From a virus (Duplodnaviria; Caudoviricetes): DNA of 64,000 nucleotides. The notes under the pieces were generated by a model. That model was not told where the DNA came from and made no database searches. It saw only the letters and a program-made list of their open reading frames with translations. The DNA lies in the IMG/VR virus record IMGVR_UViG_3300037067_017859, positions 32,001-96,000 of that record; one strand, 5' to 3'. The translations under genes and the position numbers were made by a program. Of the stretch, positions 7,103-50,505 are shown in pieces (positions within the stretch are counted from its first letter, which is position 1; every line of letters begins with the position of its first letter).

Positions 7103-7630
7103 ATGATGGGACCGAGAGAATTATCACAGAAATTGCAACCGGCTGTTCACGCTTGTTTGATTGCACAAGCTTGTGCCTTAGTGCATCGAGAGAGAGTTGA
7201 CGCAATTCAGCGCCGGATTTTGCAAACTGGCAATTGGCTTGCTGAAAAATCTCAAGAAAAGATTACCGATCCTAACCACACATATCTTATGCCTCAATCC
7301 GATTACCCGGCCTACTTTACCACTCTTCGAAAAGCATTAGAGGCTGACGGCTATGTTATCCAAACACACCATATTAATGACAATGAAAATTATTGGGATT
7401 ATTACTGCCCTGCCTGTCTGGCTGAAAGCATACAATCGGACGCCGAACACGTCTTAATCAATCTTTTCGCGGAATATCTCAATTATAAGGATTTTCTTCA
7501 TAAACTTCTCTCCGCCGGGATGGATGATTATCGCAAGCTCATTGATCTTCTTGTGCGGTTTGTCGTCAATTCGCCTGATTACGTTTCTCCTGTAATTCCT
7601 AAGAACGAGGCAAACCAATGCCATGGATAA
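7103..7630 (+). CDS. hypothetical protein
   Basis: TAAGGAG RBS. Confidence 0.7.
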   Translation: MMGPRELSQKLQPAVHACLIAQACALVHRERVDAIQRRILQTGNWLAEKSQEKITDPNHTYLMPQSDYPAYFTTLRKALEADGYVIQTHHINDNENYWDYYCPACLAESIQSDAEHVLINLFAEYLNYKDFLHKLLSAGMDDYRKLIDLLVRFVVNSPDYVSPVIPKNEANQCHG

Positions 7631-7908
7631 TTGACAAAGACCTTACAGCCGATCCGAATAGGCCAGAAGGTACGAATGCCAATGCTAAGGGGCTCCTGGG
7701 ACCAGGGACATATTCAGGCGATGGTTCAGAGCTCAAACATCAGTTCCGAATGTCCGATGATGATGGAATGATTTATTACATCGGACGCAATGATACCGCA
7801 GACGATAATAACGCTTTTGGGCCTTTAGACGATTTTGGAGCGCCTAACGCAGGATGCACCACGATCGAATATTTTGATGAGGATACCAGACAATGGCGAA
7901 TTCTTTAA
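7618..7908 (+). CDS. conserved phage hypothetical protein (FRMxDDDGxxYYxG...PLDDFG..GCxxIEY type)
   Basis: GAGG RBS; recurrent phage early-gene motif. Confidence 0.7.
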   Translation: MPWIIDKDLTADPNRPEGTNANAKGLLGPGTYSGDGSELKHQFRMSDDDGMIYYIGRNDTADDNNAFGPLDDFGAPNAGCTTIEYFDEDTRQWRIL

Positions 7909-8170: not shown

Positions 8171-8689
8171 ATGCGCGTCTTGGTTGCCACAACAAAACAG
8201 CAAGGGAAAAGGTCTAATGATTTCAGCTTTACGAATGATGGCGAATTAGTACGTTATGGCTTTGATTGCGATGGCGAAGACGTTGACGGTGTTTGCGGCT
8301 GCAAGCGATCCTTAATCGGTTTCGATTCCCATAAGGGAACCACTACCTTTTGCATTGCCGAAATGGATATTAACCTCGAACAAGTAACCAAACTCATCGA
8401 AAAATCTCTAAAGGCTTCTGGCTTCATATCCCCAAGCGATCCAGAAGAAGAAAACAAGGAATTCATTGCTGAAATTGTGCTGGAAACTTTGAGCCTTTGG
8501 AAATCGTTCGATCAATTCCCTATTGGCCTCGTGCTGGAACGTAGAGGAGTATATTTCTCTCCGCGGATTGAGAAATCCGGATTATGTCCTATTTGTGGCG
8601 AAAAGATTCACCTTTCCGGACGGACGAAAGACAATAGATATATTGGCTCCTGTCAGGATGCTTTTACACTAGAACAATGGATTGCCTGA
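8171..8689 (+). CDS. conserved hypothetical protein with C-terminal zinc ribbon
   Basis: GGAGG RBS; MRVLVAT..QGxRxNDF...CGCxRS; CPIC. Confidence 0.7.
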   Translation: MRVLVATTKQQGKRSNDFSFTNDGELVRYGFDCDGEDVDGVCGCKRSLIGFDSHKGTTTFCIAEMDINLEQVTKLIEKSLKASGFISPSDPEEENKEFIAEIVLETLSLWKSFDQFPIGLVLERRGVYFSPRIEKSGLCPICGEKIHLSGRTKDNRYIGSCQDAFTLEQWIA

Positions 8690-8765
8690 TTCATTCTGGA
8701 TTTCGCGTGTAAACCCGGTTTACACGCGATACCTTGGATTAACCAGGGAGAAAGAGATAACTACA
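8690..8765 (+). repeat. structured intergenic element, copy 1 (contains the GTAAACCCGGTTTAC motif at 8709-8723)
   Basis: GGATTT-CGCGTGTAAAC/GTTTACACGCG-ATACC-hairpin-AGAAAGAG-ATG. Confidence 0.85.
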
Positions 8766-9224
8766 ATGGAACCGATCACCATTGGAACTGCAATCAAGGA
8801 AGTTCAAATCAAATACCTTACTCGCCAGAAAATAGGCGAGACTCGAAAGATATACAACAGTCAAGACGTTTTTGACATATTCCATCCTCTAATCAATCCC
8901 GAACGAGTTGAGGTTTTTATCTGTGTCATGGTCAATTCGAAAAACCGTATTTTGTCCTATGAGGTTGTGAGCCGAGGCTCTCTTAATATGTCCGTTACTC
9001 ATCCTCGTGACGTATTTTCAACTCCCGTACGACTACAGGCTTCGGCTGTACTTTTCCTGCACAATCATCCTTCGGGAGATCCAGCGCCAAGTATAGAAGA
9101 TAAAGACTGCACAGAAAAGCTTATGGCAAGCGCCAAAACTTTAGCAATCAAAGTATTGGATCATATAATCATCGGCGAAACTTCATATTACAGCTTTGCC
9201 GATTCTGGCGCATTGCCTGTCTAA
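8766..9224 (+). CDS. RadC-like JAB/MPN domain protein
   Basis: E..., HPRDVF, HNHPSGDPAPSIED, LDHIII, YYSF. Confidence 0.9.
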   Translation: MEPITIGTAIKEVQIKYLTRQKIGETRKIYNSQDVFDIFHPLINPERVEVFICVMVNSKNRILSYEVVSRGSLNMSVTHPRDVFSTPVRLQASAVLFLHNHPSGDPAPSIEDKDCTEKLMASAKTLAIKVLDHIIIGETSYYSFADSGALPV

Positions 9225-9297
9225 TTCTGGATTTCGCCTGCTAATGCTCATTGGCAGGCGATACCTTGAATTAATCAAGGGGAAAGAGAGCAAGCCA
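9222..9297 (+). repeat. structured intergenic element, copy 2
   Basis: TAATTCTGGATTT-CGCCTGCTAATG/CATTGGCAGGCG-ATACCTTGAATTAATCAAGG-GGAAAGAGAG. Confidence 0.85.
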
Positions 9298-9759
9298 ATG
9301 CTACAACATTTCAAACCGTGCAATCGATCCAAAGAACGCATGGCTTATTATGCGGCTCCTGAAGGCAAAACGATCAAGGTCGAACTCTATTACACAAAAG
9401 GAGGAATCAGCTTCGCTACTAATAAACAAGTGCGAAGGGGAATCTTTATTTCCATTACGCCGGTGACATTAGAAAAGACTCAATCCGGTTTTACCTCGGA
9501 GTCTTTTATGCTTTTCTCAGGTACGCGAAGCCTATTATGTGAGCTCAAACGCTTTTCCGAAAAGGCATTGCATGATGTAGCCGAAAAGATTGACGACCTT
9601 ATTCCAAAGGTTGCTGCAAATATCAATGCAGAAACCGCGACACAAACCGATTTTGACACAAATGTTTTGTATCTCCGCGATTGCTACCTGAACCCTGAAC
9701 TTAGAAATTTAGCCTTTCCGGCGCCGGGTAGTGAAAAAACAAAGGCTTCCAATGGATAA
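9298..9759 (+). CDS. hypothetical protein
   Basis: Starts at the end of element copy 2; LYYxKGG...RGIFxS pattern. Confidence 0.7.
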   Translation: MLQHFKPCNRSKERMAYYAAPEGKTIKVELYYTKGGISFATNKQVRRGIFISITPVTLEKTQSGFTSESFMLFSGTRSLLCELKRFSEKALHDVAEKIDDLIPKVAANINAETATQTDFDTNVLYLRDCYLNPELRNLAFPAPGSEKTKASNG

Positions 9760-10312
9760 TAAAAAACGGCGTCCACAGTTATATTTGAGTTTTACGCTCC
9801 GTCCAGAAGAAACGATTTCAGTACTTCGCCATGGCGACCAAGCGATTATCATTGTCTCCGTAATCCAAAACGATTTTGAAGGAGGAGGAACTTTATCTGA
9901 ACCCAAATGGAGAAATTGTAGCCGTATGAAAGGAACTGGACAATTCGATAACCTCGAACTTAGAGGATATCTATCAGCCGATATGAACGGCGCTTATGGC
10001 TATCACGTGGCCTATTGGGATATCCATGAAGCTGAATCTAAACGGGCTGCATTAATGGCCAAAACCCTCAAAATGATTGAAAAGAAATTCTCTTATTACA
10101 ATACAAAGGAGGGAGACAGGCTTGATATCGGCGTGGAAGTAAACCGCTTTTGCCGGGCTATAGGCGCTGAAGGTCTTATTGAGTGGACAGAAACCATTTC
10201 CAATTATGATGATTGTCCTTATCGCAAATGGAATCTAGCGCAAATACCAAATGTCGTGAATTCAAGAATTGAAGGTTGGCATATCGAGCACCCGAATAAA
10301 TCAATTGCATAG
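9752..10312 (+). CDS. hypothetical protein
   Basis: Coupled to the upstream gene; ends at element copy 3. Confidence 0.65.
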   Translation: MDNKKRRPQLYLSFTLRPEETISVLRHGDQAIIIVSVIQNDFEGGGTLSEPKWRNCSRMKGTGQFDNLELRGYLSADMNGAYGYHVAYWDIHEAESKRAALMAKTLKMIEKKFSYYNTKEGDRLDIGVEVNRFCRAIGAEGLIEWTETISNYDDCPYRKWNLAQIPNVVNSRIEGWHIEHPNKSIA

Positions 10313-10387
10313 CTTGGATTTCAGGACATAAGCCATAATCTTATGTCCTGATACCTTAGCTTATGCGAGGGGAAAGAGAGTAAACCA
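10307..10387 (+). repeat. structured intergenic element, copy 3
   Basis: GCATAGCTTGGATTT-CAGGACATAAG/CTTATGTCCTG-ATACCTTAGCTTATGCGAGG-GGAAAGAGAG. Confidence 0.85.
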
Positions 10388-10585
10388 ATGCCAAGAGTAT
10401 TTGACCTTAGCGAAACGGAAATTGTCCAATATCATCATATGCGCGATCGGACGCCGGATTGCAGAAACTTTTCCGGCGCTGGCAGGCGGCGCTATCCATG
10501 CCCTACGTGCGGCAAACCAAATCGATTGACTGAAACGGAATCTCTTGAGGGATTTCAATGCTCTAATTGTTCGAGGAAATCATAA
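10388..10585 (+). CDS. small zinc-ribbon protein
   Basis: PCPTCGKPNRLT...GFQCSNC. Confidence 0.7.
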   Translation: MPRVFDLSETEIVQYHHMRDRTPDCRNFSGAGRRRYPCPTCGKPNRLTETESLEGFQCSNCSRKS

Positions 10586-10587
10586 TT

Positions 10588-10953
10588 ATGGATACCAATT
10601 GGGATAGGGAACCACAAATGGACGCTGAAAGAAAACCGTCAATGGAAGACAAAGGGTTTACAACAAAGTCTCCTTATCTAATGACAAAGGAAGAGCGCCA
10701 TAGTCTTTTCCAATGCCTGGAAGCGGAATTGCAATTGCAGAAGCTTCCAACATCATATGGGTTGCCTCGTTTGGCTCATTCCGACGAATTCATGATAATG
10801 CATACCACCGAAGAAGGTGTTATAGGATTTAAGCATATTGGCACCCGCAACTATGTTTTCCTGCTTCCTTCGGAAAGCCAGAACCGTAAGTATGAGCTTT
10901 ACGTTCCTGTGTCCAGAGAGCTTTTTATGCGTGGACAATTCGACGAATATTAG
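10588..10953 (+). CDS. hypothetical protein
   Basis: GAGG RBS; operon continuity. Confidence 0.6.
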   Translation: MDTNWDREPQMDAERKPSMEDKGFTTKSPYLMTKEERHSLFQCLEAELQLQKLPTSYGLPRLAHSDEFMIMHTTEEGVIGFKHIGTRNYVFLLPSESQNRKYELYVPVSRELFMRGQFDEY

Positions 10954-10959
10954 GATTTT

Positions 10960-11184
10960 ATGAAAACCAGAAGATCTGTGAGGAATCAAAACATTCTTTG
11001 GAAAGAACTGGGAGGAAAACCCGATCCAAAGCCCGAACCAGTAAAAACCAAATGTTGTTGGAATTGCATATTTTATTCTAACTGCGGCCGGACAAATGGA
11101 ACTTGCAGAAAGCATGGGAAAAAAGTGGGAGGAAGAGAACAACTGAATTGTTATACACCAAACCTAAAAGGAATAACGCTATGA
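10960..11184 (+). CDS. small Cys-rich basic protein
   Basis: CWNC...C...C; AGGA RBS. Confidence 0.5.
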   Translation: MKTRRSVRNQNILWKELGGKPDPKPEPVKTKCCWNCIFYSNCGRTNGTCRKHGKKVGGREQLNCYTPNLKGITL

Positions 11185-11414
11185 AAAAAGTTAAAGAACT
11201 GACCGATGAGGAATGCAGGGAGGTTTTAGACAGAATTGTTAGAGTAATGTATGAAAGCATTGATCCTGATACGGACAAACCTATTCTAGATCCTTTCAAT
11301 GAATTTAATGCCTCGATGCTGGACGATATCGCGGCGGCTCTTGAATCCTATGAGTTAGTTCCGGACGAAATTGTTGATCTGGAAGAACCAGAAACAGATT
11401 CTTTACCGGAGTGA
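11181..11414 (+). CDS. small acidic protein
   Basis: AAGGA RBS; ATGA overlap; very D/E-rich. Confidence 0.65.
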   Translation: MKKVKELTDEECREVLDRIVRVMYESIDPDTDKPILDPFNEFNASMLDDIAAALESYELVPDEIVDLEEPETDSLPE

Positions 11415-11492
11415 TTATCGAGCTTGGCATTCTGCTCCTGGGAATAGAATGCCAGGTCCGCTAATTAAAGCGGGGAAAAAGAGCAAACCATT
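11412..11492 (+). repeat. structured intergenic element, copy 4 (divergent)
   Basis: CTTGGCATTCT/AGAATGCCAGG stem, CCGCT/AGCGG hairpin, GGAAAAAGAGCAAACC-ATG. Confidence 0.75.
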
Positions 11493-11684
11493 ATGGACAA
11501 TATCATTACTAAAATCGACGAAGCAAATAATCGGCTCATTATCAACTTGGCATTACAGGCTCCAGTAGCATCGGCCAGTGGGAAAACCCTCGTGGTCGCG
11601 TCCACCCGCGGCAACGTAAAGACCGGAGTCATGATCAATGGCAAAGAAGTCACTGTTGGCTGCAATGCCTACATAAAGCCCTAA
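11493..11684 (+). CDS. conserved small hypothetical protein (SASGKTLVVAST..GN type)
   Basis: Recurrent small-protein motif; bounded by element copies 4 and 5. Confidence 0.75.
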   Translation: MDNIITKIDEANNRLIINLALQAPVASASGKTLVVASTRGNVKTGVMINGKEVTVGCNAYIKP

Positions 11685-11689
11685 AAATA

Positions 11690-11762
11690 CTGAAAGGCGA
11701 TTTCACGGGCCACATTCTTTGTGGCCTGTGATACCGCTTTTTAGCGGGGAAAGAGAGAAACC
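11690..11762 (+). repeat. structured intergenic element, copy 5
   Basis: AAAGGCGATTT-CACGGGCCAC/GTGGCCTGTG-ATACCGCTTTTTAGCGG-GGAAAGAGAGAAACC-ATG. Confidence 0.85.
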
Positions 11763-12029
11763 ATGAGCAAACCGAAAAAGGAAATATCTAAACCTCCGTT
11801 CAATGATCCGGAGTTAAGGCTAAAATTCAGACAGCTTGTTAATGCGGCCGTCAAACTCCAATGCATCCTATGGGACAGATTCGGAGAGATTGAAGGATTG
11901 TTGGGCAGAGATATTCAAGACTTCGACGCTAATATCCATGATCTTGCAGCGGCAAGCGACGAAGGGTTGATAGATGATAGCCAAGCTGAAACTTTTTTCA
12001 ACGAACTTGAATTCACTCCGGAGGACTAA
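11763..12029 (+). CDS. hypothetical protein
   Basis: Starts at the end of element copy 5. Confidence 0.7.
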   Translation: MSKPKKEISKPPFNDPELRLKFRQLVNAAVKLQCILWDRFGEIEGLLGRDIQDFDANIHDLAAASDEGLIDDSQAETFFNELEFTPED

Positions 12030-12033
12030 TCCG

Positions 12034-12948
12034 ATGATGCTAACCTTAACCGAATGGACGCCTGAAAGAATACCGATCAGTCACCAATTGCCTCCTATGC
12101 CGCACGAGGGATGTCTTCAAATACCCAAAGAATGTGAATCAGGTTGGGAGCAATTGCCACGTGCTGTAGAACCTGAAGCGGAAGAACCTGAGATTGAAGA
12201 AAAACCAAAAATCAAAGAGTCAGAATGTTTGATTAAAAAAAAGGACATTTTGGCTTATTTCAAAGGGAACGATAAAACCGGGTATACCTGCCATCCGCCA
12301 TGGATGAAATTATTTGAAATCTACACTCCACCAAGTTGCCCAAAGCCGCCGATCGATAAGAAGATAGCAGCTACCATCGAAAGGTTGACCAAGAATATTC
12401 AGAAAAGTTATGTCCAGCACCTTCCTGCAAACAAAAATCATAGGCAATGCGATGCTTACATCGGCTCCCGAACAAAAGATTATAAATATGAATGTGTCGC
12501 AACTGACGAACACCGAGCTATCCTCGTGAGGAGGAATGATAAGCAGAAAAAAGTCAATGGGGTTAGCTCATGGAGGCTATGGAGTGTTAATGAAGTTCCG
12601 AGTCCAGGCGAACCGTCACTAACCCTGACGGATCCTGATATTTTTGTTGCCATTAAACGCCTTTCCACACTTCTGGACACTAAGTATTGGTTCATTGTTT
12701 TAAACTGGAATGATTCAGGGAAATTAATCATTTCCGCCGAGAATTCATTCAAGGAAGAAGGAGTTGAAGAATTTTCTTGTAAAGCCACCTATTCCGGCAG
12801 AATTGCTTTAGACCCTCGTTATGTTCTTCCTGCGCTTGGAACATGGCCATTAGTTATGTACCAGAAAGAAAAAAAGAGTCCTGCAATCTTTATGCCGGAC
12901 ACAAAACAACGTGAATTCATGTACGTGCTTATGCCAATGCAATTATGA
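12034..12948 (+). CDS. protein with C-terminal half resembling the DNA polymerase III beta clamp (last ~1.5 domains)
   Basis: VATDEHR (cf. VATDGHR), IALDPRYV (cf. IAFNxxYL), YVLMPMQL (cf. YVVMPMRL); GGAGG RBS. Confidence 0.6.
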   Translation: MMLTLTEWTPERIPISHQLPPMPHEGCLQIPKECESGWEQLPRAVEPEAEEPEIEEKPKIKESECLIKKKDILAYFKGNDKTGYTCHPPWMKLFEIYTPPSCPKPPIDKKIAATIERLTKNIQKSYVQHLPANKNHRQCDAYIGSRTKDYKYECVATDEHRAILVRRNDKQKKVNGVSSWRLWSVNEVPSPGEPSLTLTDPDIFVAIKRLSTLLDTKYWFIVLNWNDSGKLIISAENSFKEEGVEEFSCKATYSGRIALDPRYVLPALGTWPLVMYQKEKKSPAIFMPDTKQREFMYVLMPMQL

Positions 12949-13036
12949 ACAATCTAAGTCTGGTCGTGTAAACCGGGTTTACGCGACCAGACTCCGCTTT
13001 TAAGCGGGGAACTGAGGAAGAAAGGAAATTAAATCA
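12949..13036 (+). repeat. structured intergenic element, copy 6 (contains the 15-bp motif reversed, 12968-12982)
   Basis: AGTCTGGTCGTGTAAAC/GTTTACGCGACCAGACT stem, CCGCTT/AAGCGG hairpin, GGAA, purine-rich RBS. Confidence 0.75.
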
Positions 13037-13570
13037 ATGGACGAATTAACAGAAGATCAAAAGATCGGAACATGTTCCTGGTGTCATGAGAAAAAAGTCC
13101 TCATCTATAAGGACACCAAACGCTGCGATTCCTGTGATAACCGCTTTACCTATTGTGAAATATGCGAAGAAGAGCAATTTGAAGATGATCATTGTCGTCA
13201 CTTATTTTGGTCTGAAGGCTACGGATGGAGTGGAAGCGGGACAACCAATACAGATTACGACAGCATAAAAGCCTCGCTATTGAAACTCCTTCAATTTATG
13301 CCGTCTGGATTCGCGGCAGAACTCCGAACGGCCATTCTTAGCAATGAATTCCGTACTTTTACGATCGGCAGTCTATTGAGGATCGATTGCGTAGAATTAG
13401 AGGGGTTTCATCCTTCCTTGAAATACAGCAAGAAATTGATTGACCTTGAAAGTAGCGACCATGCCGAAGAAACAGCCGATGGTTATAATTGGCTTGCGAG
13501 TTTATGTGAGAGTGATACGGCAGAAGCCAATGCCCTAACAATCAAATGGATCGAGGAATTCTTAAAATGA
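13037..13570 (+). CDS. Cys-rich N-terminal (zinc-binding) hypothetical protein
   Basis: Three CxxC pairs. Confidence 0.7.
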   Translation: MDELTEDQKIGTCSWCHEKKVLIYKDTKRCDSCDNRFTYCEICEEEQFEDDHCRHLFWSEGYGWSGSGTTNTDYDSIKASLLKLLQFMPSGFAAELRTAILSNEFRTFTIGSLLRIDCVELEGFHPSLKYSKKLIDLESSDHAEETADGYNWLASLCESDTAEANALTIKWIEEFLK

Positions 13571-15442: not shown

Positions 15443-16030
15443 ATGAGCCACCTATTTCTCACTGAAGAGAAAATTCACATCCTCCTGGAGTCGGCAAAGG
15501 CTAATCTTCGTGACTATGCTTTACTGCACATGGCGGCAAGCACAGCGTTGCGAGGATCCGACCTTCTCAGAATCACCCTCGAGGACATGGTTGATAGGAA
15601 CGGCGAAATCATCAGGCTGCTCCGATTAAAGATGAAGAAGACCGCCCAATGGATCGAACGGCCGCTCCGGGACGATTGCCGGCAAGCTGTTTTTACCTGG
15701 ATCAATAGCCGGAGAGACAAAAACCCTTATCTCTTCATTTGCCTTGGGAATGAAGGGAAAAACAGAAAAAAACCATTAAGCAGAATGGGTTATGATCGAA
15801 TTATCAAAAAATACCTGGCTTTGCAATATCATGAATCCGTTTTGCAGGGATGCTCGACACATACGCTGCGGCGATCCGTGGCGAAGCTCGTCTATAAGAA
15901 GACCGGCGAAATTGCCGCGGCGCAATCGCTTCTTGGGCATCATTCCCCCATCAATACCATAAAATATATCGATCCAAACGAAATCAAGGAGAAGGCTAAT
16001 AAAGTGGTTTTGGAGGATCTTCAATGGTAG
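15443..16030 (+). CDS. tyrosine recombinase, catalytic domain only (195 aa)
   Basis: ALRGSDLL (R), KKT (K), HTLRRS (HxxR), LLGH, TIKY (Y). Confidence 0.9.
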   Translation: MSHLFLTEEKIHILLESAKANLRDYALLHMAASTALRGSDLLRITLEDMVDRNGEIIRLLRLKMKKTAQWIERPLRDDCRQAVFTWINSRRDKNPYLFICLGNEGKNRKKPLSRMGYDRIIKKYLALQYHESVLQGCSTHTLRRSVAKLVYKKTGEIAAAQSLLGHHSPINTIKYIDPNEIKEKANKVVLEDLQW

Positions 16031-16563
16031 AAAACGATGATCCTACCAAATTCGAGGTTGCCTGCGTTCATGGCACATCTATTATCAGGCGTAAGGTCGT
16101 AAATGAAAAGGGATTTGAAATTCTACAAAGGATGGCGGAAAGAGCAACAAATGGACAATATCACTGGATTAGAGTAAATTATCCCGATTCGACAACAGAG
16201 CGGGTGCTTGGGGAAGTACCTGGGGCTCATAACCCTGGTAAAGGCGGTCCGACTCCGCCACCCGCTACCAAATTAAAATTAAAAGAACCAAGTCCTTTTA
16301 AAGGAGACCCTGGCGATTCAACAACCAAATGTCTTGGTTGTGATAAGGATTTGGGATACCCAACAAGCAGAAAAAAACCATCTGCATGGTGCCGGTCCTG
16401 CTATCCAAAATATAGAGCTTATCTCAAAGATGAAGTTAATCCTTATAACTATGATTTTCCGATTTATAATTATGCGTCAGGCCATAATTCAATAAATTTA
16501 AGAATAAAACAAAAAATGCAATATGGGTTCAGGATTCTTTATGCTTCATATAACGAAGGATAG
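16024..16563 (+). CDS. hypothetical protein with CxxC...CxxC
   Basis: GGAGG RBS; CLGC, CRSC. Confidence 0.6.
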   Translation: MVENDDPTKFEVACVHGTSIIRRKVVNEKGFEILQRMAERATNGQYHWIRVNYPDSTTERVLGEVPGAHNPGKGGPTPPPATKLKLKEPSPFKGDPGDSTTKCLGCDKDLGYPTSRKKPSAWCRSCYPKYRAYLKDEVNPYNYDFPIYNYASGHNSINLRIKQKMQYGFRILYASYNEG

Positions 16564-34753: not shown

Positions 34754-37700
34754 TTACTCTTCCGGAGGTTCCGGCAGACTTCCGCTATTATTATCAGGTG
34801 GAGACTGCAATTCGTTAGTCTTCTTTTTAAATTTACGGATACCTAACTTTTTTAGGGACTTTTGCGCTGTTGCCAGCATTTTCATGTAAGCATTATCTAT
34901 CCTCCTTCTTTTTTCTTCAGAATCGTATTCTCTATCCTGGATCACCCTATGGATTTCCCGATTAATGCTGTTGAACTTCTCAACGGCATATTTTAATTCA
35001 AAATACCTATCTTTTTCTTCTCGAGTCAACGGGGGGATATCGAACCGATTGTTTTCCTTTAAACTTTGTTTCCGGCTTCTGTACCGAAGATTAATTTCAT
35101 TCCACAATTCATGAACCTTAGAGATGCTTCTTAGGCTTGCATGTGGGAAGCGCACCGCTATCGATCGAATCAGCGGCGTATCCGCCAACTGAGCAGTTGG
35201 CAGAGCCCCGCCCTTTGGAGGAGAAATGATTTTTGAGACTGGATCCAAAAGAAGCTTAGTTGCTAACCTGGCGCTTCCTCCAAAAGTGGAAAACATAGCA
35301 TGCTCAATTTTAACCGGACTCACATGAATGCCTGATTTGGCCAGCAATAAAGCCGTTTGATTCGCAAAATGGCTTGTATACCAGTTTGATCTGTATTCCG
35401 GGAGGTAGTTTTTCTGCATCCACGCGCTTTCGATTTCCCTATTGGTGAAGAAATTCTGATTGCGCCATAGTTCGATTGGAGTCTTAATAATCGTTGGCAA
35501 CAAGCTTGGTGTAATGTTAGAAAGAAAATTACGGACAAAATCATCAAACGCCGAAGGATCTTTCGTATCTAAATATTCTGCAATTCTCTCAGCCGGCGTT
35601 GCATAAAACATTCCCCAACTAAACGGTTTTGGAATTGGTATCCATGGAGTCAATCCACTCAAGCCAGGTATCCCTTTGGTTGGAAACAACCAGAAGAGAT
35701 CGCGGAGCCACCAAGGAGCTTCGTGGTATCTTTCATCATCTTTATTCAGATAATAAATAATCAGTGATACCAATTGGAACGCGGCGCCCTTCAGTAAAGC
35801 TTTTTTGGGGTTTCTTTTATGGACGCGCACGAATTTGTCCACATCCTGGATGGCTGCATTAAAAAATGGGATGGTTAGATTCATGCCTCTCATCCAGGCG
35901 CCAATTCTTTGAAAATCAAGATTTGCTTCTCGAGATGCAAATCCGGCAGCCCGAATGGATTCACCCTTTTCTCTTGATTTAGCGTAGACGGATACTCGAG
36001 TCATTGCCTCGGATATTTCACTTAATATTCTCAAAGTATCTATGGGATGACGAACCGCATATTTGAGTTTCCCTGACATCAGATCGCGTAAAGCCAGCTT
36101 CATTTCATTCCGGTCCATGGAGGACATAGCCGAATGCGGACCTCCGGATCTCATCCATTCCTTGTACGTGGCGTCTTTCATCAGAACATGAGCAAGCCCC
36201 TTGGCTGTATCCCATCCGGGAACATAGCCAATTTCGGTTTGGGCCCATGCGGTAAGCATATCTCGAGCAATATTACGGGAGGCGAATTCCGGGTTAATCC
36301 CGGTCGCGCCGGTTCTGAGAATTGACGCTGGAATAGCAGCAATTCTCATAAGGATGCCGATGGAATCTTTATCTAATCCTTTTACAGCTTCATAAAGGTT
36401 TGGCTCAAGCTGATATAAGGTCGGTTTCCCTTTAAAATAGACCGTTATGATATTTTCCTTGGGCGAAGGCACGGCATTGTAAACAAATATTGTCGCAAGC
36501 TGGTCCAGATTAAGATTCGGATCCGCAATATCAACTCCGGCCGCGGAAAGAGCATTTTTGATTCTCTCTAAAGCAAAGGTCTGTGGAATAGCTTTTGCCG
36601 TTAATGGTCCTGAAATCCATCGGCCGGCGCCATCTTCTTTAGACAAATTTGCGAGAGCCTGGCCGACTAGATTACGTTCCGCGACATTGATAAGCGTATA
36701 TGTGTTTTTAATGATTGATTCCAGCGGATCTATAATCGGGCGCCAGGAACCCGTCATTCCCTTGACTGGTTGCCACAAATCTACGGCGCTGGATCCTGAT
36801 TTTAGCCGACTTTCCGTGGATTTCTCGCCGGCTCCTGCTTCATACATTCTATGGAATGGCACAAAGAACTGGTTGAGAAGTTTAATATTGATATATTGAT
36901 CAACTGAGAGCATCCCACAATCTCGGAAATATGTCAGAAGATCATCCTGATATTTATAAAGCTTCATCAGGGTGTCTTTTGTTATTTGAGCTTCCGGAGT
37001 CATTGCCCTCAATGAATTCACATCAAATGCCAATATAGAAGGATGGCCGGGCATTGCTGGAGTTGTTGCCACGGAGAGAGCGCTTGGATCAAAACCTTGC
37101 TCTATCAAAGATTCCCTGGCTTCCTGGACAGTTATCCCGACTTCGATACCTTTGAGTCCTTTCTTTTCTAATGTTCTCAAAGAAATGGCCGTAATGCGCA
37201 GATCGTCTAATCGATCCTTCATTGGTGCAAGAATCTGCTTCAATCCAGGTCCGAGAATACTATCCAGATCTTTACCAAAAGTCCCTACTTGAAGGAAATG
37301 TTCAGCCCTGGCAGCCCACCCGCTTAAAGCTTGGGCAAGCTTGCTTGGATCCTCTTCCATCCTAATATTACGGCCTTTGGTAATAATTTTTACCGCTACA
37401 TCAATCGGATTAAGATGATTGACTATCCCCGTATAAAGTTTTTCAAACCATCCCAGTTGGTCGTATTGTGGTTCTTGTACCGAGATATGGGATAGAATTT
37501 TTGCTGAACTTGTTTGATCCAACCAGCGTTTATAATCTCTCTGAGCTTCCTTTAAAATTTCCGCGAGATCCTGGTTATGGGCCAGTTCACCTTCAAACAT
37601 CAGATGAACGCCAGGGCATAATTGCGCCGCCTGCGCCGGATCAGTAATCCAGTACCGGATATATTCAGCAAATCCTTCCGGAAGTTTTGATTGGCCGGCC

Positions 37701-40700
37701 AGTGGCTTTGTGGCGATCGCCTCGAGTTCCGCCCTATGAGCGACAAGAGGCTGCCAATTGAGTTGTTGTCCGCGTTTCCCCCACAAAATCTTATTAATAG
37801 CATGCCCGACTTCATGAGCCGCAACGGAAACATCTTGGGCTTTTTTAATCCGAATGGCTGTACTATTTATCTTAAAAATGCCCAAAGCTCTTTGCCGGAA
37901 TCGTCCATACCTGATAGGCACCTGGAGCTTTTTCGCCAAATTAGTAAGAATGGTATTCCGACTCACCAAATCTTTCTTATCTATTACAGGAGGCAGAGCA
38001 TATTGTCTCGTTCCTGACGTCTGCGGCGGAGCCGGCAGTATCGGAGCTCCCGGAAGACTGGCCATTGGAGATGTAGGCTCTTCCTCCACTTTCGGCAGTT
38101 CTTCGCCTTCTTGGCTGCGCTTTAATTCATCCATCATTTCCTCAACATAAGGGAAATAATGGATTGCTTCTGCCTGGGATTGTTCCTTATTAAAATCGGC
38201 TTCGCTGTTCACATAATCAGTCACTTCTTCTATAACCTGGTCGACATAGATTCTTTCACTCAACCAACCAGAACTATCTTGCGTGTTAATCCAATTGAGC
38301 AGATGTTTCGCTATCACCGGGTTTTGATGAACAATCATTTGATCATTCACTGTCCCCTGGCCATTTAAAATTCTGTCGATGGACTCTTGAGCTTGTTTGA
38401 GCCAGAAATCCGCCGCCTGTCGCGCCTGTTCAATAGACTGAGGAACATCTCCGCGGCCAACTTCTATTGACCGGGATCCGTCATCACCGACATTGAGACC
38501 CATTGAAGCAGAACTTGTCGGCCCTCCACCGCTTGGCGCACCAGGAGTCCCTGTTGGGATAACTCGTACCGGCTTATTTCTTTCAAAGATTTTGTCGAGG
38601 AGTTTTGGCCCTTCAATCTCGTCCAATGGAACAAAAGCCCGGGGACGTCTGGATTCGCCTCCAACAATGATTTCGGTAATAGCGCCTTGTTCGTGGAGCG
38701 TCTTAACCGCGGCTTCACGATATGCCCGAGCAAGGTTGATTTCCATTCGACGCTCCCCATGGATTGGGGGTGTCATTTGGATGCGCCAATTATTATCCAG
38801 TTCTATAGTTGCGCCATCACGAACCATAGTAAATATCGAAAGACCTGATTCTTTAGTGAAATCATTGCCCATCCCAAGTCTGCTTTTAAGCGGCCCAATC
38901 TCATTGGTCCTAACCTGAATTCCAATTATTGGGGAACCATCAGCCAGAACCGCTCGAACAATTCTTAAACTATGGAGCTGTCCGTCTCCTATAATTTTGT
39001 CGTGGATTGGGAAAACTGCGCCAGTGACCATATAAACTGGCTTCCTGGTAGTCTCCGGAATTGCAGCAAATTCTTTTTCCCATAAATCCTTTGCTTGTTC
39101 CAAGCTTGTCACTGGAGGTCCGGGGAGTCTTTCAGGAGTTACTAATTTTTCCTTCGGGGTTCCTTCGACACGTTCATAATTCTCATTGAAGTCTGAAACC
39201 TCAATTCTATTCTTTGTGAATCGAACAGTCCTAAGATCAATTTTCAAAGCGCCTGTTAAAGGATCGACATAATTATAAGCAGCCGATATTTTCCCGCTAC
39301 GCTTATTGGTTACAAACCCAATAAGATCTACGCTTCGAGGAATATTATCCCATTTGAGTTTTTCAGTTTTAAAATCCCCTTCCATCTCAAGGAATTTTGT
39401 TTCCATATGAGAATTGGGATCTTTATAAATAACCTCTTCTTTTGTGATAACAATATTGCTTCCACGGATTTTTGAAATCCCGGTATCAAAAGTTCCTTGT
39501 TCCTTTGCAACTGCGAGATTGGCCTGATAACGGCTGTAAAAGTTATTAAAAATATCGTTTTGAACGTCGACAGGAAGAACCATTATGCGATTCAGAAATC
39601 CTTCAACATTTGTGTCGACGCCAGGCTTTAATGATCCATTCGGCGTAAGCCAACCCATAGCATCCAAAATATCCATGCTATTGCCGAAATCTCCTCTCAC
39701 TTCATAATTATTATGCGCTAAATCGTGAGTGAGAGACATTAAGGCGGTGCGACCATAACCATCTGTAAGATCTTCAATATCAAACAGACTGCCGCCAAGA
39801 GATTCCCGGTTTCCTTGTGTCACAGCCCCAAGGCTTGCCAGCCGGCGCGAAACAGCATTTATTAATCTTTGCTGACCCATGACATTGGTTTTAACCAGCA
39901 TAATCACGGGAGGAGTTACTTGATTGGATCTGTGAGCCCGGCCAAAGAACTGCATTTGTTGATCAGCAGACCAGGACAATTGGGCGCAATACATTATCCG
40001 GCGCTTGCCTTCGGTGGGAATGCCCCTTTCAGATTGAGCCGAAATTCCGGCGCTGCCGGCTCCGGTGATGATCAGAACATCGGCTTCACCGTTCTGGAAT
40101 CGGCGCAGTTCTGCATTATTGATTGTTTCCCCGGGTTTCTTCCCGGCCGGCTTGCGGCGCACAAGTTTATTGCCTTCAATTCTTTCAGTACGACCGGATA
40201 TTTCGGCTACTTTTCCCCATCCTCCAAGATGATTCGCAATCATATCGATAGGATTATCCGGGAGGTTCAGATACTCGAGTTCATTCAGAAGATCTTCTTG
40301 CATGCGAAGGTTCTCCTGATTGATTTCTCCAGTTGGCACTTTAATTGTTGATTGCGGGTTGTCCGGGTCCGGGACGTCTTCATATTCATCGAGAGGAAAA
40401 TAGTTTTCAATATAGGACCGGATCATTTGACGTGGCCCAATATCAATATCTTCAATGCTTTTTCCGGCCGCCTCTGCTTTAGCGACTTCCTTCCGCATTA
40501 ATGTTTCGTTTGTGCTGAGAATATTGACAATCGGAGCCATACCCTTTTTAAGGGATTCATCCAAATGAGTTAAAACAGATTGCATCTGGTAAGTCGTCAT
40601 CAGCATCAGGAAAAATCTTTGTTGAGTGCTGTAAAACTGAGAATATCGCGTCCCCCCATGACTCTGATTGGCGTTAGCCTCAGCTTCCTCCATTCTCTTT

Positions 40701-43700
40701 ATCAGGGCAGACCATAATTTTGCAGATTTATTGTATTGCTCAAGTTGATATTCATTGAGATCGTGGTTCACATAATCGTAGTTCACCCCACGGTAACTGA
40801 TCTGCCGACTTATAAATGATCCAAGGGATTTCAGATCTCGAGAGAGCATCTCCATGGCTCCCAATCCCCCGGCATTCATTGCATTCATAAAAGCGTCGAA
40901 GTCTGCAAATGCCGTTCCTTGGCCCCATAATCCAAGCCTATTCATGTACCCCATGTTATGGGCGAGAGTGGCCCCGGTAGCACTCACATAGAGTATCTTG
41001 GCCTTTGGGAACGTCTCAGCAAGCAATAGACCCATCTCGCCGCGGTCGGTGCCGGTTGCGCTCGTTGAAGCTCCACCCTGATTACTGCCAACGGCATTTT
41101 TCATCGCGTGACATTCGTCAAAGATAATAACGCCTTCGAACTCTTTATCGGCTTCTGTAGGCTGTAGCCAATTGACAATCTGATTGAACCGTTCTCTTTT
41201 TCCCTTCCAGTCCGCTGCTGCGGTCATATATTGGGTGAAGAGAACTCCTTCGGTATTGTCGATAGGAACGCCCTTTGCAAATCTGGATTCATTCTGGTGA
41301 ATAACAGACAAAGGTACGCCTACTCCTCCGATATCTCTTTTGGCATCCTCAAATAATTGTTGAGTGGCTGAAATCCAGACAGCTTTCTTCTGCCCGGTTT
41401 CTCGAAGGTAATGATAAATAATCCCTGCTCCTTCTCTTCCTTTGCCAACTCCAGTCCCATCGCCAATCCAGAAACCGGCAGTTTTACCATCCGGTAAAGT
41501 GGTTCCGAATCTTTGAATTGCATAGGTGATTGCCTCTAATTGGGCAGAACTCAATTGCCCGGTTGATATGACTTCTGCCGGCAGGTTGAGTTTCACCGTA
41601 ATATCTGGCGCTTCCACGCTGCCCAAAGTTGCACTTTCAATAAGGTCGGCAGGGTGAGGTTGAGCACCTTTGTAGATAGCCTTCCTGGGCTGATATTTCA
41701 CATAAGCATCTGTTTCCTCTTCTCCGAGAACTTTATTCTGCGCATCGAGTGCTATCTCGATGGGAGCCACGTCCCCCGGGCCTCCAGAAACAGGAGCACC
41801 ATGTTCTCCGCCCAATCCGGGAGCTTTTTCAATTCGTTCGGCATCGGAAGGTTTTCCTTCAATATGAGTTGGTGGAGGTCCCGGGATACTCGGTCCGGGT
41901 CCTCGCTCTCCGCTTTCAGGAATGTGTCCCAATTCACCGGGTCGAGACTCATTCCCGGTCGGTACGCCAGGTCGCCCTCCGGTAACGCCAGGCATTCCAC
42001 CACCAGTTCCGACAGGGGGTTCTGCCGGTCCAATGACTGGCCCCGCAATCGGAGGAGGAGCTTGGATGCTTTCGATTGGCTTTGGTCTAGTGATTCGTTC
42101 ATGGATATCCTCTGCTGCAATGGTGCTTAACTTCTCCAAGGCTTCCCCAGGAGTAAGCTGGTGATCCATTAAAACTTTTAAACTTCTTTCTGCCCCTGTA
42201 TCTCCCGGGGTAGGACCAGTTTTATCAATAACGATCAGCCGATTGTCATAGGTGGTTCCCATCTTCTGATAGTAACTACCCTTTAATCCAAGATCTGCCC
42301 GGACGTTGTAATGAGCCTGAACTTGATTCCACCATTTGTTGAATTTTGATCTGTGATGCCCCATCCCTTCACCGACAATAGCAACCAGGCGGCCGCCTGG
42401 CGCGAGTTTTTGCAGGGCATTCATTACATGCCGGGCGCCAAACTCCATGCCATGCAACTTACCAGGTCCGGCCGAGAATGGAGGATTCATGAGGATTACA
42501 TCTGGAGTGTAATCCGATAAGGACGTTCCTGTGGTCGTAAGATGCAATGCATCCACGGTAGTCGTCGGGAAGTTTCTGAGTTTCAAGACAGTGACGCGGC
42601 GTTCATCTATCTCGTTCGCCCTGACTTGGTATCCGTGGATTCTCATCATCGTCGCCAGCATTCCAGTGCCAGCGCTTGGCTCTAAGCCCAAAAGAGGAGA
42701 GCTTGAATTTCCCAAAGCGTATGCGGCTAAGAAAGCTTGCATAGGCGGCGTTGAGAATTGTTGCAAATCAATCTGTTCGGTTGTCCGATCGGATTGGACG
42801 GCAAGACGATTCTGAAGCTCTTCCAGCCGGGTCATGGTTGCTAATGGATCATTAAAATCAACAATGCCGCTTTCTTCGATGTATTCCGAAACGGCGCCTT
42901 CGAAGACATCATACATATCCCGAAGAGTGTATTTGCCTTGCCCTCGTTCTCCGCCGAAAGCTTCATTGGCCATAGCCTGAAGTTTTGGATTATTGAACTT
43001 TTCTCCATTCACTAAAGCTGTTTTGACCTTATCGAGAAAAACCCTGAATTGCGCATTTCTGGTAATCTCTTCCGGTTGCGCAGGTTCTTTCTCAACTGGA
43101 GGCTCTGGTAAAACATCGAGAATAGTAGGCGGCGTTACTGGAGGAGGCGGTGCAACGAGTTCTTCAGGAACGGGAGGTTTTCCCGGGGGAGTTACGACTT
43201 CCTCTGGTTTCTGTCCTTCGGCCGGAGGAGGCGCAAGAGCTTCTGCTTGTCTGACAACAGATGCCTTTTCTGGATTCAGTACAATAATCTGATCAGCCAA
43301 AGCTTGACGGAAAAATTTATTATCAGTTTTATCCGCAATCTCTTTTACATTCTTTAAAACGACTGCATCATATTTCTTGGCAACCGCCTTCCAGAATTCC
43401 GGATTATCACGATAAAAAGCTTGTCCTACCTTAGAGGCAAGAGACTTGATTGCTTGTTCTGAATCCACAACAATTATTTTGGCCCCGGGATCCAGTCTAA
43501 ACTCAACCGATTCGAGTTGAGTTTTTTTGACTTGAGCTCCTACCTTTGCTTTCCATTTTTGCGCCTCATAATCATAGAAAAACTCAGCGCCTTTTGATTT
43601 CAACTCCTTTTCATTTTCAAGAGTTATATCAACGGTTACATCTTCTCCTTCCCGGCTTAATACCGATGACCATGTATCATCATCAAGTGACAGATAGATG

Positions 43701-46700
43701 CTTTCACCGGCGAAGCGGCTGGTTTTCGGTCCTGCACCTAAATCACCAGTACCATGGATAGGTATCTGTTTGAAATCAAAGGGAACGCCTGATTCCAATG
43801 CCTTCTTGGCTTCCTTGGAAGTGAAATGCTTAAATATCTGTCCTCCATACTGAGTTGGTGCTTCTGGAGTCGGCTCTGGTTTTGGAGTTGTTTCAGGGGC
43901 AGGCAGAGTTTCCACTGGAGGCGGCGCAAGTTCCTGACGTTGATCGACAGTCCCTTTGGCAATCTCTTCGGCTGATCCAGTAAGGAAACGGAATTTCCCC
44001 TTGCCTTCAACCTGTCTTTTGAGAAGTTGCAATTGAGCTCTTAAATGCTCAGGCTTGGTAACTACAGTCAGAAATTCTTCCCAGGCGTTCGTTTCTGGAT
44101 TCCACTTTTCCGCTCTCAACCCTATCGAGGTTGCCGCGGATTTTGGATCCAGGATCCCCATGAGCTTATGTTCTTCCCCATTTTCGATTGCCAGAAGAAT
44201 ATCGTCTTCTGTAATCATGTTGGGATGATAAAAGAAGGTGCCCTTGCCTGGAACGTCGACGTTCTGTAATTGTGGGATTTCGGCGACTATTGAGAGGAAA
44301 TCATTTATCAGATCGCGCTTTTGCCAATCTTGCAACGTCGATTCTGGAACAAACACAACCCGACGCTCTCCACTTCCAATCGTTTCTATTTGAGACAGAA
44401 CTGTAGAAGGTTTTTCTGGAACAGTTACCTCGGGCGCTGCCGGCTCCGTGATTGTTTCTGGTCCCGTGATCGATTCAGGAGTAGGAGGAAGTGATTCAGG
44501 TTTTTCATACCGCGGTTCAAGCTTTCCTTCAGCCTCAGCCGCCGCTTTCCTGCCCTTCATTGTCTTGAAAGCTGCCTCTGGAGATTCTTCGATCCCATAG
44601 GAAAAACCAACTTTCATTTGATCATCGCCAACGATGAAGGGGTTTTCGTCAAACCACTTCTGAGCCTTCTCCATCGCCGCATCAATTTCTTCCTTCGTAT
44701 CAGCTTTGGTAACGAAGTCATCTCCACCCAGGCGATATACGGATATTCCAGACTGAATAAATCCTTGGGCTGCATGCTGTAGGTATCTATCACCCTCATC
44801 TTGACCATAGACATCATTGATTTTCTTCATTTTGTCTAAGTCAAGAGAAGCCACGTACTTTTTGAAGGGAGCTCGTTCCCAGGCGGATCTATTACGAAGC
44901 TGAGTGAGTTCATCCGTAAGGAGTTCTTTCTCAATTTCCTCCCGGCTCATCTGAGAAACTTGTTTTCTCCGTGGCCAGTTTTGCCGGCGATCGGTCTTAT
45001 CTTCCCTCGCAACTTCTCTTCTATCTACATCAGTTCTGCCGATAGGGAGTTCTTCCGTTGGAGTCGTAGGAGCGCCTGGTGTGGTTGGCGCTTCGGGTGT
45101 GGTAGTCCACTTGCTAGGATCGTAAACCTTATAAGGCCATGAAGGTTCTGTTTTAAGATCTTTTTTTGCCTTTTCAGCCTCCGTTACATTCCTGATGGCA
45201 ATGACTCCACCAGCTTCCGGAATGCTATCAAGTTCTGCCTGGATTTTATTTACTTGATCGGCCGCATAAGCAAAACCAGTGTCATCTCCTTTTGTTTGCG
45301 CCTCGTCCCGGCGCTTAATCATCTCAAAAAGCTGTCTTCCAAGAGAATCTACCCGAGGATCTCTTGTACGCATAACCATGACTGCTTTTGATCCAGTAAG
45401 CTTTTCAAATTCCGCTACCTTCTTTTTGGCATTCGATTCGGCTGCATCAATCTCGTTTTCCAATTGCTGGACTAAGAAGTTTTCATTTTCTTTAGAAGAT
45501 TTAAGAAGCCCGGCTATAACATCTGGAGGAATATCTGTTTTACTTAAATAATCAACATACTCTTGATGCCGTTGGCTCACCGTATTTCTGAGATAAACCC
45601 TAGCCCTGGATGCACCGATTGCAGAGGTAAAAGCAGAGAAGACGGCTCCTGAAACACCACCAGCGATGCCTTGGCGATTGTCTTCCTTCATATTCATTGG
45701 TTCGCCAGAAATACTACTGACAACCCAATCTTGACCGATATTTTGCATCCACTCTTGCCCGAACTCCTCGAGATAGCCTTTAGCGGATCCGGTCAACATC
45801 CCGCGCTTTATCCGGTCTTTAATCCATCTTGTGGCCCATCCTCCACTAATTTTGTCAAGCCTCGAAAGTCCACGTTCAATTGGCAATGCTTCCGTTGCAC
45901 CCAATCCAACACCGGCAATAAATGCTGCAAACAATTGGGTAGGATTCGCGCCGGCTTTGTAAGCCTCTTCATAAGTTGATCCTGCCTGGACAAGAGCACC
46001 AGACGCCATAGTAGTGGCCGCTACTGGTAAGCCTGCTTCTCCACCAACTAATCCCATCGCAATGAATCCGATAGTGGACCCGAGCCCTTGGGGAATCATC
46101 GACGCCCAATATTCTTCTTGGAATTTTGGATTTACTGGAAGGCGATCTTCAATCTTCCGTTGGACATCATTTGCCATCTTGTAAAGTATTGAATTTTCCA
46201 GTTTAGGCAAAGGTTCAGGCTCGAGCCCTTTTTCTATCCGGCCGACACCTTCTATCTGTTGCCCGGAAATTTCAGCCAAATGGGGTATAGCACTAATGCT
46301 TTTTATTGCCATTGGCACTTGATCTGCAATGCCTTGGAAGAAAGAATTCACAGCATTTGACATGCGATCGGTAGGAATAGGAATTTTACTTTCCTTTATC
46401 CTTTGCAGATTCAATTTCGTCATCTGCTCCGGTTTAAGTTCCTCCGTTTTTGTCTTAACATGTTCTAATTTAAAATAAGGATGCCCGTTGATTATGGTGA
46501 CTGAAGGTATCGGCTTCCGCGCTTCTTGTAATGCCCTCTCCTTAATCTCTCCTTCGGATACAATTGACTCAGGCAAGGATGGGACATTTGGCAATTGCCC
46601 CGGAGTGGGCATTTCAACCTTGGCTTCCTCTATTTTCTGAGGTTCAAAAGCCTTACTTACTTTCTGTTCACGCCCCTTTATGATCTTGCCTTTTTGTTCT

Positions 46701-49836: not shown

Positions 49837-50453
49837 TACAATCTCCTTTTACTTTCGCGGTACTCCTCTTTCGACAGCCAAGAGACAATCCCTTCACATA
49901 TTTTTCCATCGAAGGTGGTATATTGAGGAATCCGGAATAATTCCTTCATGCCCTGTCTTTTGATGAAAATAGAAGATAGTCTATTGAGCGCCGGAGTAAG
50001 TCCCACAAGGGTATCAATTTTCAAACCTTCAAACCAATATTCCAGGATCATTTCCCCAAAAGATTCGGTATAAGCCGGCTTCTGGTAATCATTGAAGAAT
50101 AAGAAACTTCCGGTTGCCTTAGTCATAATTCCACTACAGGAGATGATGTCGGCAAGCCAGGCCATTCCGCAAATATCTATCAGATTATTTTGATCGTCCA
50201 TAAGCCCGAAGATTTGCAGAAGACATTTCTGACCCGAAAAGAAATTCATAAATTCCAAAAGAGTAATATCCGGGTGTTCGTGAAAAACAATCTTATCTAA
50301 TCCCTCTTTCTTCAATCGAAAGAACAAGTTAATGAGGGCTTCATGTTGTTCTGTGCCATTCTGAGGTTGGTAAAGGATTATAAGATATGGTCCCTTACGT
50401 GGCTTGAATTCGTATTCAGACTCTTCGATTTTCATAGTTTGTTCTTTTTCCAT
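49836..50453 (-). CDS. GNAT-fold-like protein of the virion module
   Basis: CGMAWL...LVGLTPALNRLS..FIKRQGM, a GNAT C-terminal pattern. Confidence 0.55.
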   Translation of the reverse strand: MEKEQTMKIEESEYEFKPRKGPYLIILYQPQNGTEQHEALINLFFRLKKEGLDKIVFHEHPDITLLEFMNFFSGQKCLLQIFGLMDDQNNLIDICGMAWLADIISCSGIMTKATGSFLFFNDYQKPAYTESFGEMILEYWFEGLKIDTLVGLTPALNRLSSIFIKRQGMKELFRIPQYTTFDGKICEGIVSWLSKEEYRESKRRL

Positions 50454-50505
50454 GACGGTTCTCCCTTTTTAATCCATTTTTATTCTATCACTACACTGTC
50501 AAGCC

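Follow-up and report, generated by a model that had tools for sequence, protein, structure and literature searches.

Small genes in the presumed early region of a tailed-phage genome (Duplodnaviria; Caudoviricetes) are separated by gaps that share one design, which raises the question of what is repeated between them, whether it acts as DNA or as RNA, and what it would do for the phage. The window analysed is a stretch of 64,000 nucleotides, corresponding to bases 32001-96000 of the 109,283-bp IMG/VR virus record IMGVR_UViG_3300037067_017859, which is rated complete. Its plus-strand gene block (about 5.6-19.1 kb of the window), which we call early from its gene content and orientation, contains six copies of an intergenic element in the stop-to-ATG gaps 8690-8765, 9225-9297, 10313-10387, 11415-11492, 11685-11762 and 12949-13036. 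Each gap runs from a GAUUU head through a hairpin of 12-17 base pairs (HP1), an AUACC linker and a second hairpin of 4-6 bp (HP2) to a purine-rich tail, and 5-9 nucleotides precede the ATG at the end of each element. A sequence-only reading of the window had proposed this design, and all six gaps fit it, both when read by sequence and when folded against shuffled controls (z scores of fold energy from -2.9 to -7.0). We argue here that the element is a structured RNA of the sense strand with three covarying helices, and suggest tentatively that it processes and stabilizes messages.

The structure can be assessed by comparison with a relative phage, IMGVR_UViG_3300037067_015039 (109,212 bp), which was found by pattern scans and shares 72-77% identity with it over the colinear blocks covering the array (66-88% when every aligned block is counted). 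The relative has seven elements, namely orthologs of all six window copies and an extra one behind an extra gene, and each of the 13 copies occupies a stop-to-ATG gap, on the coding strand. The GAUUU head is invariant in the ten canonical copies, and a 12-nucleotide tail, at the ribosome-binding position, is identical in nine of the 13. HP1 is conserved by pairing: 98.5% of its alignment cells are paired, both sides have changed in ten of 12 pairs, and its covariation score is 0.986, compared with 0.26 in shuffles and 0.05-0.12 in slid controls. Among four orthologous pairs (copy 1 was read by eye owing to a one-column alignment shift), no stem substitution breaks pairing; about seven are matched by a compensating change in the partner base, and in four a G·U pair preserves the helix. 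Identity between orthologs is 33% in HP1 loops and 46% in the spacer before the ATG, compared with 96% in the head and 100% in the linker. The earlier observation that stems vary while pairing is kept is thus borne out both by HP1 covariation and by compensated changes between orthologs. The 13 HP1 stems contain 155 Watson-Crick pairs, 16 G·U pairs, one A·C and two other mismatches (171 of 174 positions paired), and folding is more stable for the sense strand than for its complement in 11 of 13 copies (-32.4 versus -28.8 kcal/mol on average; Wilcoxon p 0.0017). Strong covariation, the asymmetry between G·U and A·C, and the preference for the sense strand together indicate a sense-strand RNA structure. 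Such asymmetries are incompatible with a cruciform or an antisense structure; as a formal matter, sense-strand single-stranded DNA may be the folding form.

The family appears to be both undescribed and narrowly distributed. At the gathering threshold, Rfam 15 has no match in the window, and a search up to an E-value of 5 returns a single spurious microRNA match. No known family is therefore matched, a check that the sequence-only reading had called for, and its suggestion of an undescribed structured RNA is well supported by this result together with the covariation, the G·U versus A·C asymmetry and the sense-strand preference. A covariance model built from the ten canonical copies (R1) scores them at 66-83 bits. 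Window copies 1, 2, 3 and 5 reach 70-83 bits, compared with 29 bits for copy 4 and 17 bits for copy 6, which agrees with the earlier description of these two as more divergent. The full motif does not recur in the 109,283-bp genome, the model is convincing nowhere else in either phage genome, and the family is confined to one 4.4-kb stretch per genome. A blastn search of the region against public phage records gave no match, a single-protein scan for relatives found none, and a protein-guided search turned up one more distant contig (L009, 39% identity), in which no element is present. Pattern scans of viral and prokaryotic collections gave 21 other loci, which are chance matches scoring at most 19 bits by covariance model. 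A model match at 50433-50482 on the minus strand (18.9 bits) was rejected as a promoter-like motif plus ribosome site rather than a family member; the minus-strand interval 50455-50515 contains a TTGACA-like box, a short spacer, a TAGAAT box and then a GGGAG ribosome site. The distant contig has, at L009:8890-9140, a near-perfect intergenic inverted repeat whose arms are each about 75 bp long (fold energy -106 kcal/mol) that is unrelated to the element family.

Two hairpins do not exhaust the fold. RNAalifold did not return HP2 from the canonical copies; the flank upstream of HP1 pairs instead with the 5' arm and loop of HP2, forming a helix (P1) that competes with the second hairpin and that the sequence-only reading had missed. 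P1 is 8-12 bp long with one small mismatch, starts 2 nucleotides before HP1 and ends 1-2 nucleotides after it, occupies a single register in 11 of 13 copies and, in most copies, takes in the stop codon. Stacked on HP1 it gives an irregular hairpin of 20-25 bp with a conserved internal loop of 3 × 2-3 nucleotides, and this combination is the minimum-energy fold in eight of 13 copies. Cognate flanks pair at -6.5 kcal/mol and non-cognate flanks at -3.4 kcal/mol, a value for the cognate set that none of 10,000 permutations reached; in nine copies, at most 5% of shuffled flanks pair as well as P1. Every one of the 13 copies can form HP2 (-4.7 to -8.1 kcal/mol), with loops of 4-7 nucleotides and compensated changes between two sequence types. 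P1 and HP2 share one strand and are mutually exclusive, and changes in that strand are matched in both partners; both states therefore appear to be under selection. This three-way covariation, with one strand able to pair with either of two others, makes the element a clear computational example of a two-state RNA. Both helices were analysed by script, the covariance-model alignment having placed HP2 of the G-type copies two columns off, and an automatic energy comparison of the two states, which had boundary errors in some copies, is used qualitatively only.

The individual copies, all on the plus strand, show how regular the arrangement is. Copy 1 extends from a stop codon to the ATG of the RadC gene (8687-8768; 80.9 bits), with HP1 at 8703-8729 (12 bp), HP2 at 8732-8748 and the purine tail at 8747-8758. 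In copy 2 (9222-9300; 82.9 bits), the 5' strand of P1 occupies 9222-9230 including the stop codon, followed by HP1 (9234-9261), the strand region shared by HP2 and the 3' side of P1 (9264-9280) and the tail (9279-9290). Copy 3 (10307-10390; 70.1 bits), in which two pairs are compensated relative to its ortholog, has the same order: P1 5' strand with the stop codon at 10307-10317, HP1 at 10321-10351, HP2 and P1 3' strand at 10354-10371, and tail at 10369-10380. The strongest P1, of 10 bp, belongs to copy 5 (11690-11765; 70.7 bits), with its 5' strand at 11690-11699, HP1 at 11703-11731, HP2 and P1 3' strand at 11734-11747 and tail at 11746-11757. The divergent copy 4 (11412-11495; 29.4 bits) retains a P1 5' strand with the stop codon (11412-11420), HP2 (11458-11473) and a tail (11472-11483), and its HP1 (11422-11457) is an interrupted stem of about 15 bp with three G·U pairs. 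Copy 6 (12946-13039; 16.7 bits, E 0.57) has HP1 at 12957-12993, HP2 at 12994-13007 and a divergent tail from 13006. It has no P1 and the longest HP1 (17 bp), which fits a requirement for total duplex length.

Two mutually exclusive helices that both covary would suit a translational control element, in which a P1/HP2 switch, or a protein of phage or host that binds the conserved loop and tail, would set or couple translation of the next cistron without cleavage. The position of the stop codon in or adjoining P1 would also suit such a role, as would a shared tail that exceeds what a Shine-Dalgarno sequence needs, and in copy 2 the end of the upstream coding sequence can also pair with the tail. 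Against this, the tail is unpaired in both main folds, so that the switch does not clearly mask the ribosome site, no candidate RNA-binding regulator was identified, and the long, perfect HP1 exceeds the needs of an operator. We consider translational control unlikely as the main role, while giving it appreciable weight.

The reading that we favor is an intercistronic module that would process and stabilize mRNA and supply a standard leader within a polycistronic early message; judged from sequence and predicted folds, its chance of being right is a little under half. In the unprocessed message, the flank upstream of HP1 would pair with the 5' arm and loop of HP2, and P1 would stack under HP1. 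A double-strand-specific endonuclease, most likely host RNase III, would then cut at or beside the internal loop. Were the cut to fall on the loop's 3' side, HP1 would be left at the end of the upstream message and shield it there from exonucleases, as a 3' cap, and the downstream RNA would start 0-3 nucleotides before the 3' strand of P1. That strand, once freed, would refold as HP2 and form a 5'-terminal cap directly before the purine-rich ribosome-binding leader. Each unit of one to four genes would gain its own stabilized, context-independent message and, as a side effect, the short conserved blocks would become recombination points for the exchange of gene cassettes. This scheme of cutting and capping is a proposal that would give every conserved feature a role.

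Double-stranded processing has a well-described precedent. The T7 early precursor carries five RNase III signals, an ideal RNase III substrate is 22 bp long, and internal loops restrict the enzyme to one strand and leave stabilizing 3' hairpins (PMC3867540). In 11 of 13 copies of the element, P1 (8-12 bp), the 3 × 2-3 loop and HP1 (12-13 bp) form a two-turn coaxial hairpin with the internal loop about one turn from the apex. T7 early sites, folded for comparison, give the same layout as P1 plus HP1. The T7 cleavage coordinates reportedly given by Dunn and Studier in 1983 fall in annotated gaps. Of the three candidates named by the sequence-only reading, T7-like RNase III processing fits best because P1 and HP1 together make an irregular hairpin of 20-25 bp with a conserved internal loop; the processing itself is something that we infer.

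Several observations weigh against this proposal. Window copy 6 has no P1, and in window copy 1 P1 is weak because a 4-nucleotide insertion relative to the other phage breaks the stacking; copy 5 of the relative has a substitution that leaves HP2 unaffected but gives P1 an A·C mismatch. When 15 kb were searched with a covariance model of the five T7 sites, copies 5 and 3 came out on top (12.0 and 10.9 bits, copy 5 being the best match), with scores that are not significant (E 1.2 and 2.4), so that the element at best works like the T7 sites and does not belong to their sequence family. RNase III was not found in a search of the phage genome, and neither the invariant 12-nucleotide tail nor the GAUUU head is explained by RNase III recognition alone. 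Finally, two genomes alone carry the family, and many of its covarying copies are paralogs of uncertain independence.

The GAUUU head is the basis of the main rival, which is processing by a single-strand-specific enzyme (RNase E/G or a functional analogue). Such an enzyme would cut GAUUU when P1 is open, for example when opened by a terminating ribosome, and HP1 would then protect the downstream message as a hairpin at its 5' end. For RNase E the core motif is RN↓WUU, and ArcZ is cut at GA↓UUU (PMC5222698). GAUUU fits this motif in two registers and lies directly beside a stable hairpin, and because the stop codon is within or just before the 5' strand of P1, termination would expose it. The motif is, however, short and A/U-rich, and RNase E/G cleavage would assign no role to the covariation of P1 or to HP2 and would leave the upstream message without a 3' hairpin. 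Many bacteria, moreover, lack RNase E. We regard this rival as improbable on balance and still deserving of serious consideration.

Signals for transcription provide a further class of explanation, in which the element would be a hairpin-type promoter for a phage polymerase or a terminator or attenuator without a U-tract. The purine-rich tail, which starts with G, resembles the initial transcribed sequence of some phage promoters and has a hairpin just upstream, and a strong HP1 directly after a stop codon would suit a terminator or attenuator. Promoter-like matches are not enriched, with 30 found and 30.4 expected, and the single match that overlaps an element is weak (9 of 12 positions, in copy 1). 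None of 25 terminator-like sites is an element; HP1 lacks a U-tract and is followed by the AUACC linker. Apart from that weak match in copy 1, the earlier statement that the element has neither a U-tract nor a sigma70 promoter holds. A sigma54 motif, a K-turn and a compressed late-promoter motif, checked by eye, are not conserved across copies. Sigma70 region 2 was not detected in the complete phage genome, and a search for a T7-like polymerase gave no match there but matched no control genome either, and so is not evidence of absence. The 4231-aa polyvalent virion protein encoded at 34754-47449 on the minus strand has GGDEF, methyltransferase, Strawberry-notch-type helicase and LPD38 domains, and no RNA polymerase domain was detected in it. 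Distances also vary between head and linker (25-31 nucleotides) and between linker and tail (10-13 nucleotides), which does not fit recognition of a DNA sequence and suggests recognition by shape rather than by a DNA-reading factor. Terminators without following promoters would, in addition, silence the downstream units. Promoters of the N4 type are served by a virion RNA polymerase and consist of a short hairpin with a 3-nucleotide loop at a fixed distance from the start site. HP2 loops of 4-7 nucleotides and variable spacings differ from that pattern and, with no phage polymerase or sigma factor detected, the hairpin promoter proposed by the sequence-only reading is disfavored. A transcription signal of either kind is, in our assessment, very improbable.

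Differences in gene content between the two phages bear on a role in DNA recombination. Homology breaks at 9289, inside the tail of copy 2, where the relative has its extra gene and element. A second difference extends from 10949 to 11458, from a head motif to the HP1/HP2 junction of copy 4. A remnant of the head (GAUUU plus one base, 10954-10959, plus strand) lies there directly after the stop codon of a 121-aa gene, at a position occupied in the relative by a full element; in the window, two additional genes (10960-11414) and then copy 4 with a different HP1 follow, and homology resumes exactly at 11458. The third break, at 13011, lies at the HP2/tail boundary of copy 6 and is followed by a different gene. 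All three in-array differences thus end within elements, as the earlier idea of cassette boundaries had anticipated. The pattern is unspecific: genes are also replaced just upstream, at 7105-7888, where no element lies, and because the elements fill whole intergenic gaps, insertions and deletions in the array must end in them. In the relative, the extra element and copy 4 (cX and c4; the pair L002:11357-11438 / L007:1446-1526) have one mismatch in about 64 nucleotides (about 98% identity) from stop codon to tail, and their flanking genes are unrelated. The element is therefore moved or homogenized as a unit, and the near-identity of the pair points to recent duplication or gene conversion. Assembly unitigs of a groundwater run, the possible source, end and branch at 9288/9289, and the loose end continues into the relative's extra gene; both phages thus co-occur in the groundwater sample. 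The phage occurs at groundwater and landfill sites. They share a 31-mer across HP2 and the tail of copy 2 (9260-9289). Contigs of two DNA runs contained strain and relative variants only, and two low-confidence joints, 8726>9264 and 11759>13999 (sides of 23-26 nucleotides), are probably cross-matches between repeats.

It could be argued from these breakpoints and from the near-identical pair that the element is primarily a DNA-level recombination site, attC-like or PeSL-like, whose single-stranded hairpins or conserved blocks serve as crossovers and whose main function is to move cassettes. A small Xer-like recombinase is encoded 2.4 kb downstream, and PeSL motifs can mediate shuffling (PMC4122927). 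Like attC sites, the elements lie between the stop codon of one cassette and the next gene, conserve structure more than sequence and are strand-specific. Their perfect stems, however, lack the extrahelical bases, unpaired central spacer and inverse core sites of attC; the recombinase amounts to an Xer-like catalytic domain alone, scores under every NCBIfam cut-off and has no match to the IntI model; and breakpoints at three sub-positions instead of a single crossover point speak for exchange driven by homology and against a site-specific reaction. Neither covarying helices nor tolerance of G·U pairs would be needed for homologous exchange between conserved blocks. The attC-like site of the sequence-only reading is accordingly disfavored, and a recombination site as the primary function is distinctly improbable. 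The narrower version, in which the elements are single-stranded recombination sites of a phage-borne integron-like cassette system, perhaps served by the Xer-like recombinase, and the RNA features are secondary, is very doubtful. Because the elements fill whole gaps, the breakpoints occupy three sub-positions and swaps also occur without an element, we read the exchange as probably homology-driven at conserved blocks, as in PeSLs, and as something that follows from the element without being its main function.

Duplication as a discrete unit (cX and c4) and confinement to a single short stretch per genome would also suit a selfish or neutral repeat, comparable to repetitive extragenic palindromic sequences (REP) or miniature inverted-repeat transposable elements (MITE), with no role for the phage. 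Such a repeat would not be expected to have a single orientation, to fill stop-to-start gaps exactly and to contain the only ribosome-site-like sequence for the next gene, and orthologs, in a background of about 75% identity, have retained their structure by compensated changes. We find this explanation barely credible.

The genes around the elements are organized in units, within which genes overlap or sit at most 6 nucleotides apart, and the elements lie between units. Products of the plus-strand block include DUF7715, RadC, a Lar-like zinc-ribbon protein, a C5 methyltransferase, a 195-aa Xer-like recombinase and a weakly clamp-like protein. The RadC assignment made in the sequence-only reading is sound; for the gene that it had called clamp-like, resemblance to a beta clamp is weak and confined to the C-terminal third of the protein. 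Beyond the plus block, the minus strand encodes replication and virion proteins, including DnaB, SbcCD and an SU10-like portal. In the interval 15443-16270, the 195-aa tyrosine recombinase consists of an Xer-like catalytic domain alone and lies directly behind the C5 DNA methyltransferase gene; a tRNA-Met gene (16199-16270) follows 170 nucleotides after it, inside a predicted 179-aa open reading frame. The same genome also encodes, 14 kb ahead of the window, a homolog of adenylosuccinate synthetase (425 aa; L011:16604-17881, minus strand; Pfam E 8e-56). PurA-like phage genes can be PurZ, a marker of 2-aminoadenine (Z) genomes. A 333-aa open reading frame at L011:18951-19952 (minus strand) has a protein-kinase match (E 9e-5) that is below the cut-off and too weak to support an assignment. 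A kinase encoded by the phage would bear on the processing model because T7 kinase stimulates RNase III, as indicated by an entry in the reference list of PMC3867540.

If the processing proposal is correct, the element would be a self-contained insulator part that combines a cut mark, an upstream cap, a downstream cap and a standard ribosome leader in one fold. Phages could then exchange accessory genes with no need to readjust how these are expressed, which would link post-transcriptional processing with modular genome evolution. Such a compact natural design could be tested in reporter operons.

PeSL motifs of T4-like phages resemble the elements in being short, composite intergenic stem-loop motifs repeated in a variable early region, and in both cases it is inside the motif that close relatives begin or cease to differ by inserted, deleted or replaced DNA (PMC4122927, PMC2839356). 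PeSLs carry a sigma70-type early promoter, which the elements lack; the conserved feature is a DNA promoter sequence in PeSLs and RNA pairing, in three covarying helices, in the elements. RNase E sites (RN↓WUU) beside stem-loops resemble the GAUUU head beside the stable HP1, although here the motif lies in the 3-nucleotide internal loop of the long-hairpin fold rather than in a free single strand. The T7 sites R0.3, R0.5, R1, R1.1 and R1.3 resemble the elements in recurring between the cistrons of an early block whose genes share one sense. In each system a lower stem leads through a small, conserved internal loop to an upper stem spanning roughly one turn of the helix (12-13 bp in the elements, 9-10 bp in T7), which a small apical loop closes; stem sequences vary, the sequence flanking the internal loop is conserved, and the next gene's ribosome site comes immediately afterwards. 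The elements differ from the T7 sites in that the 3' strand of the lower stem can fold as a covarying hairpin of its own, HP2, and in the invariance of the 12-nucleotide leader.

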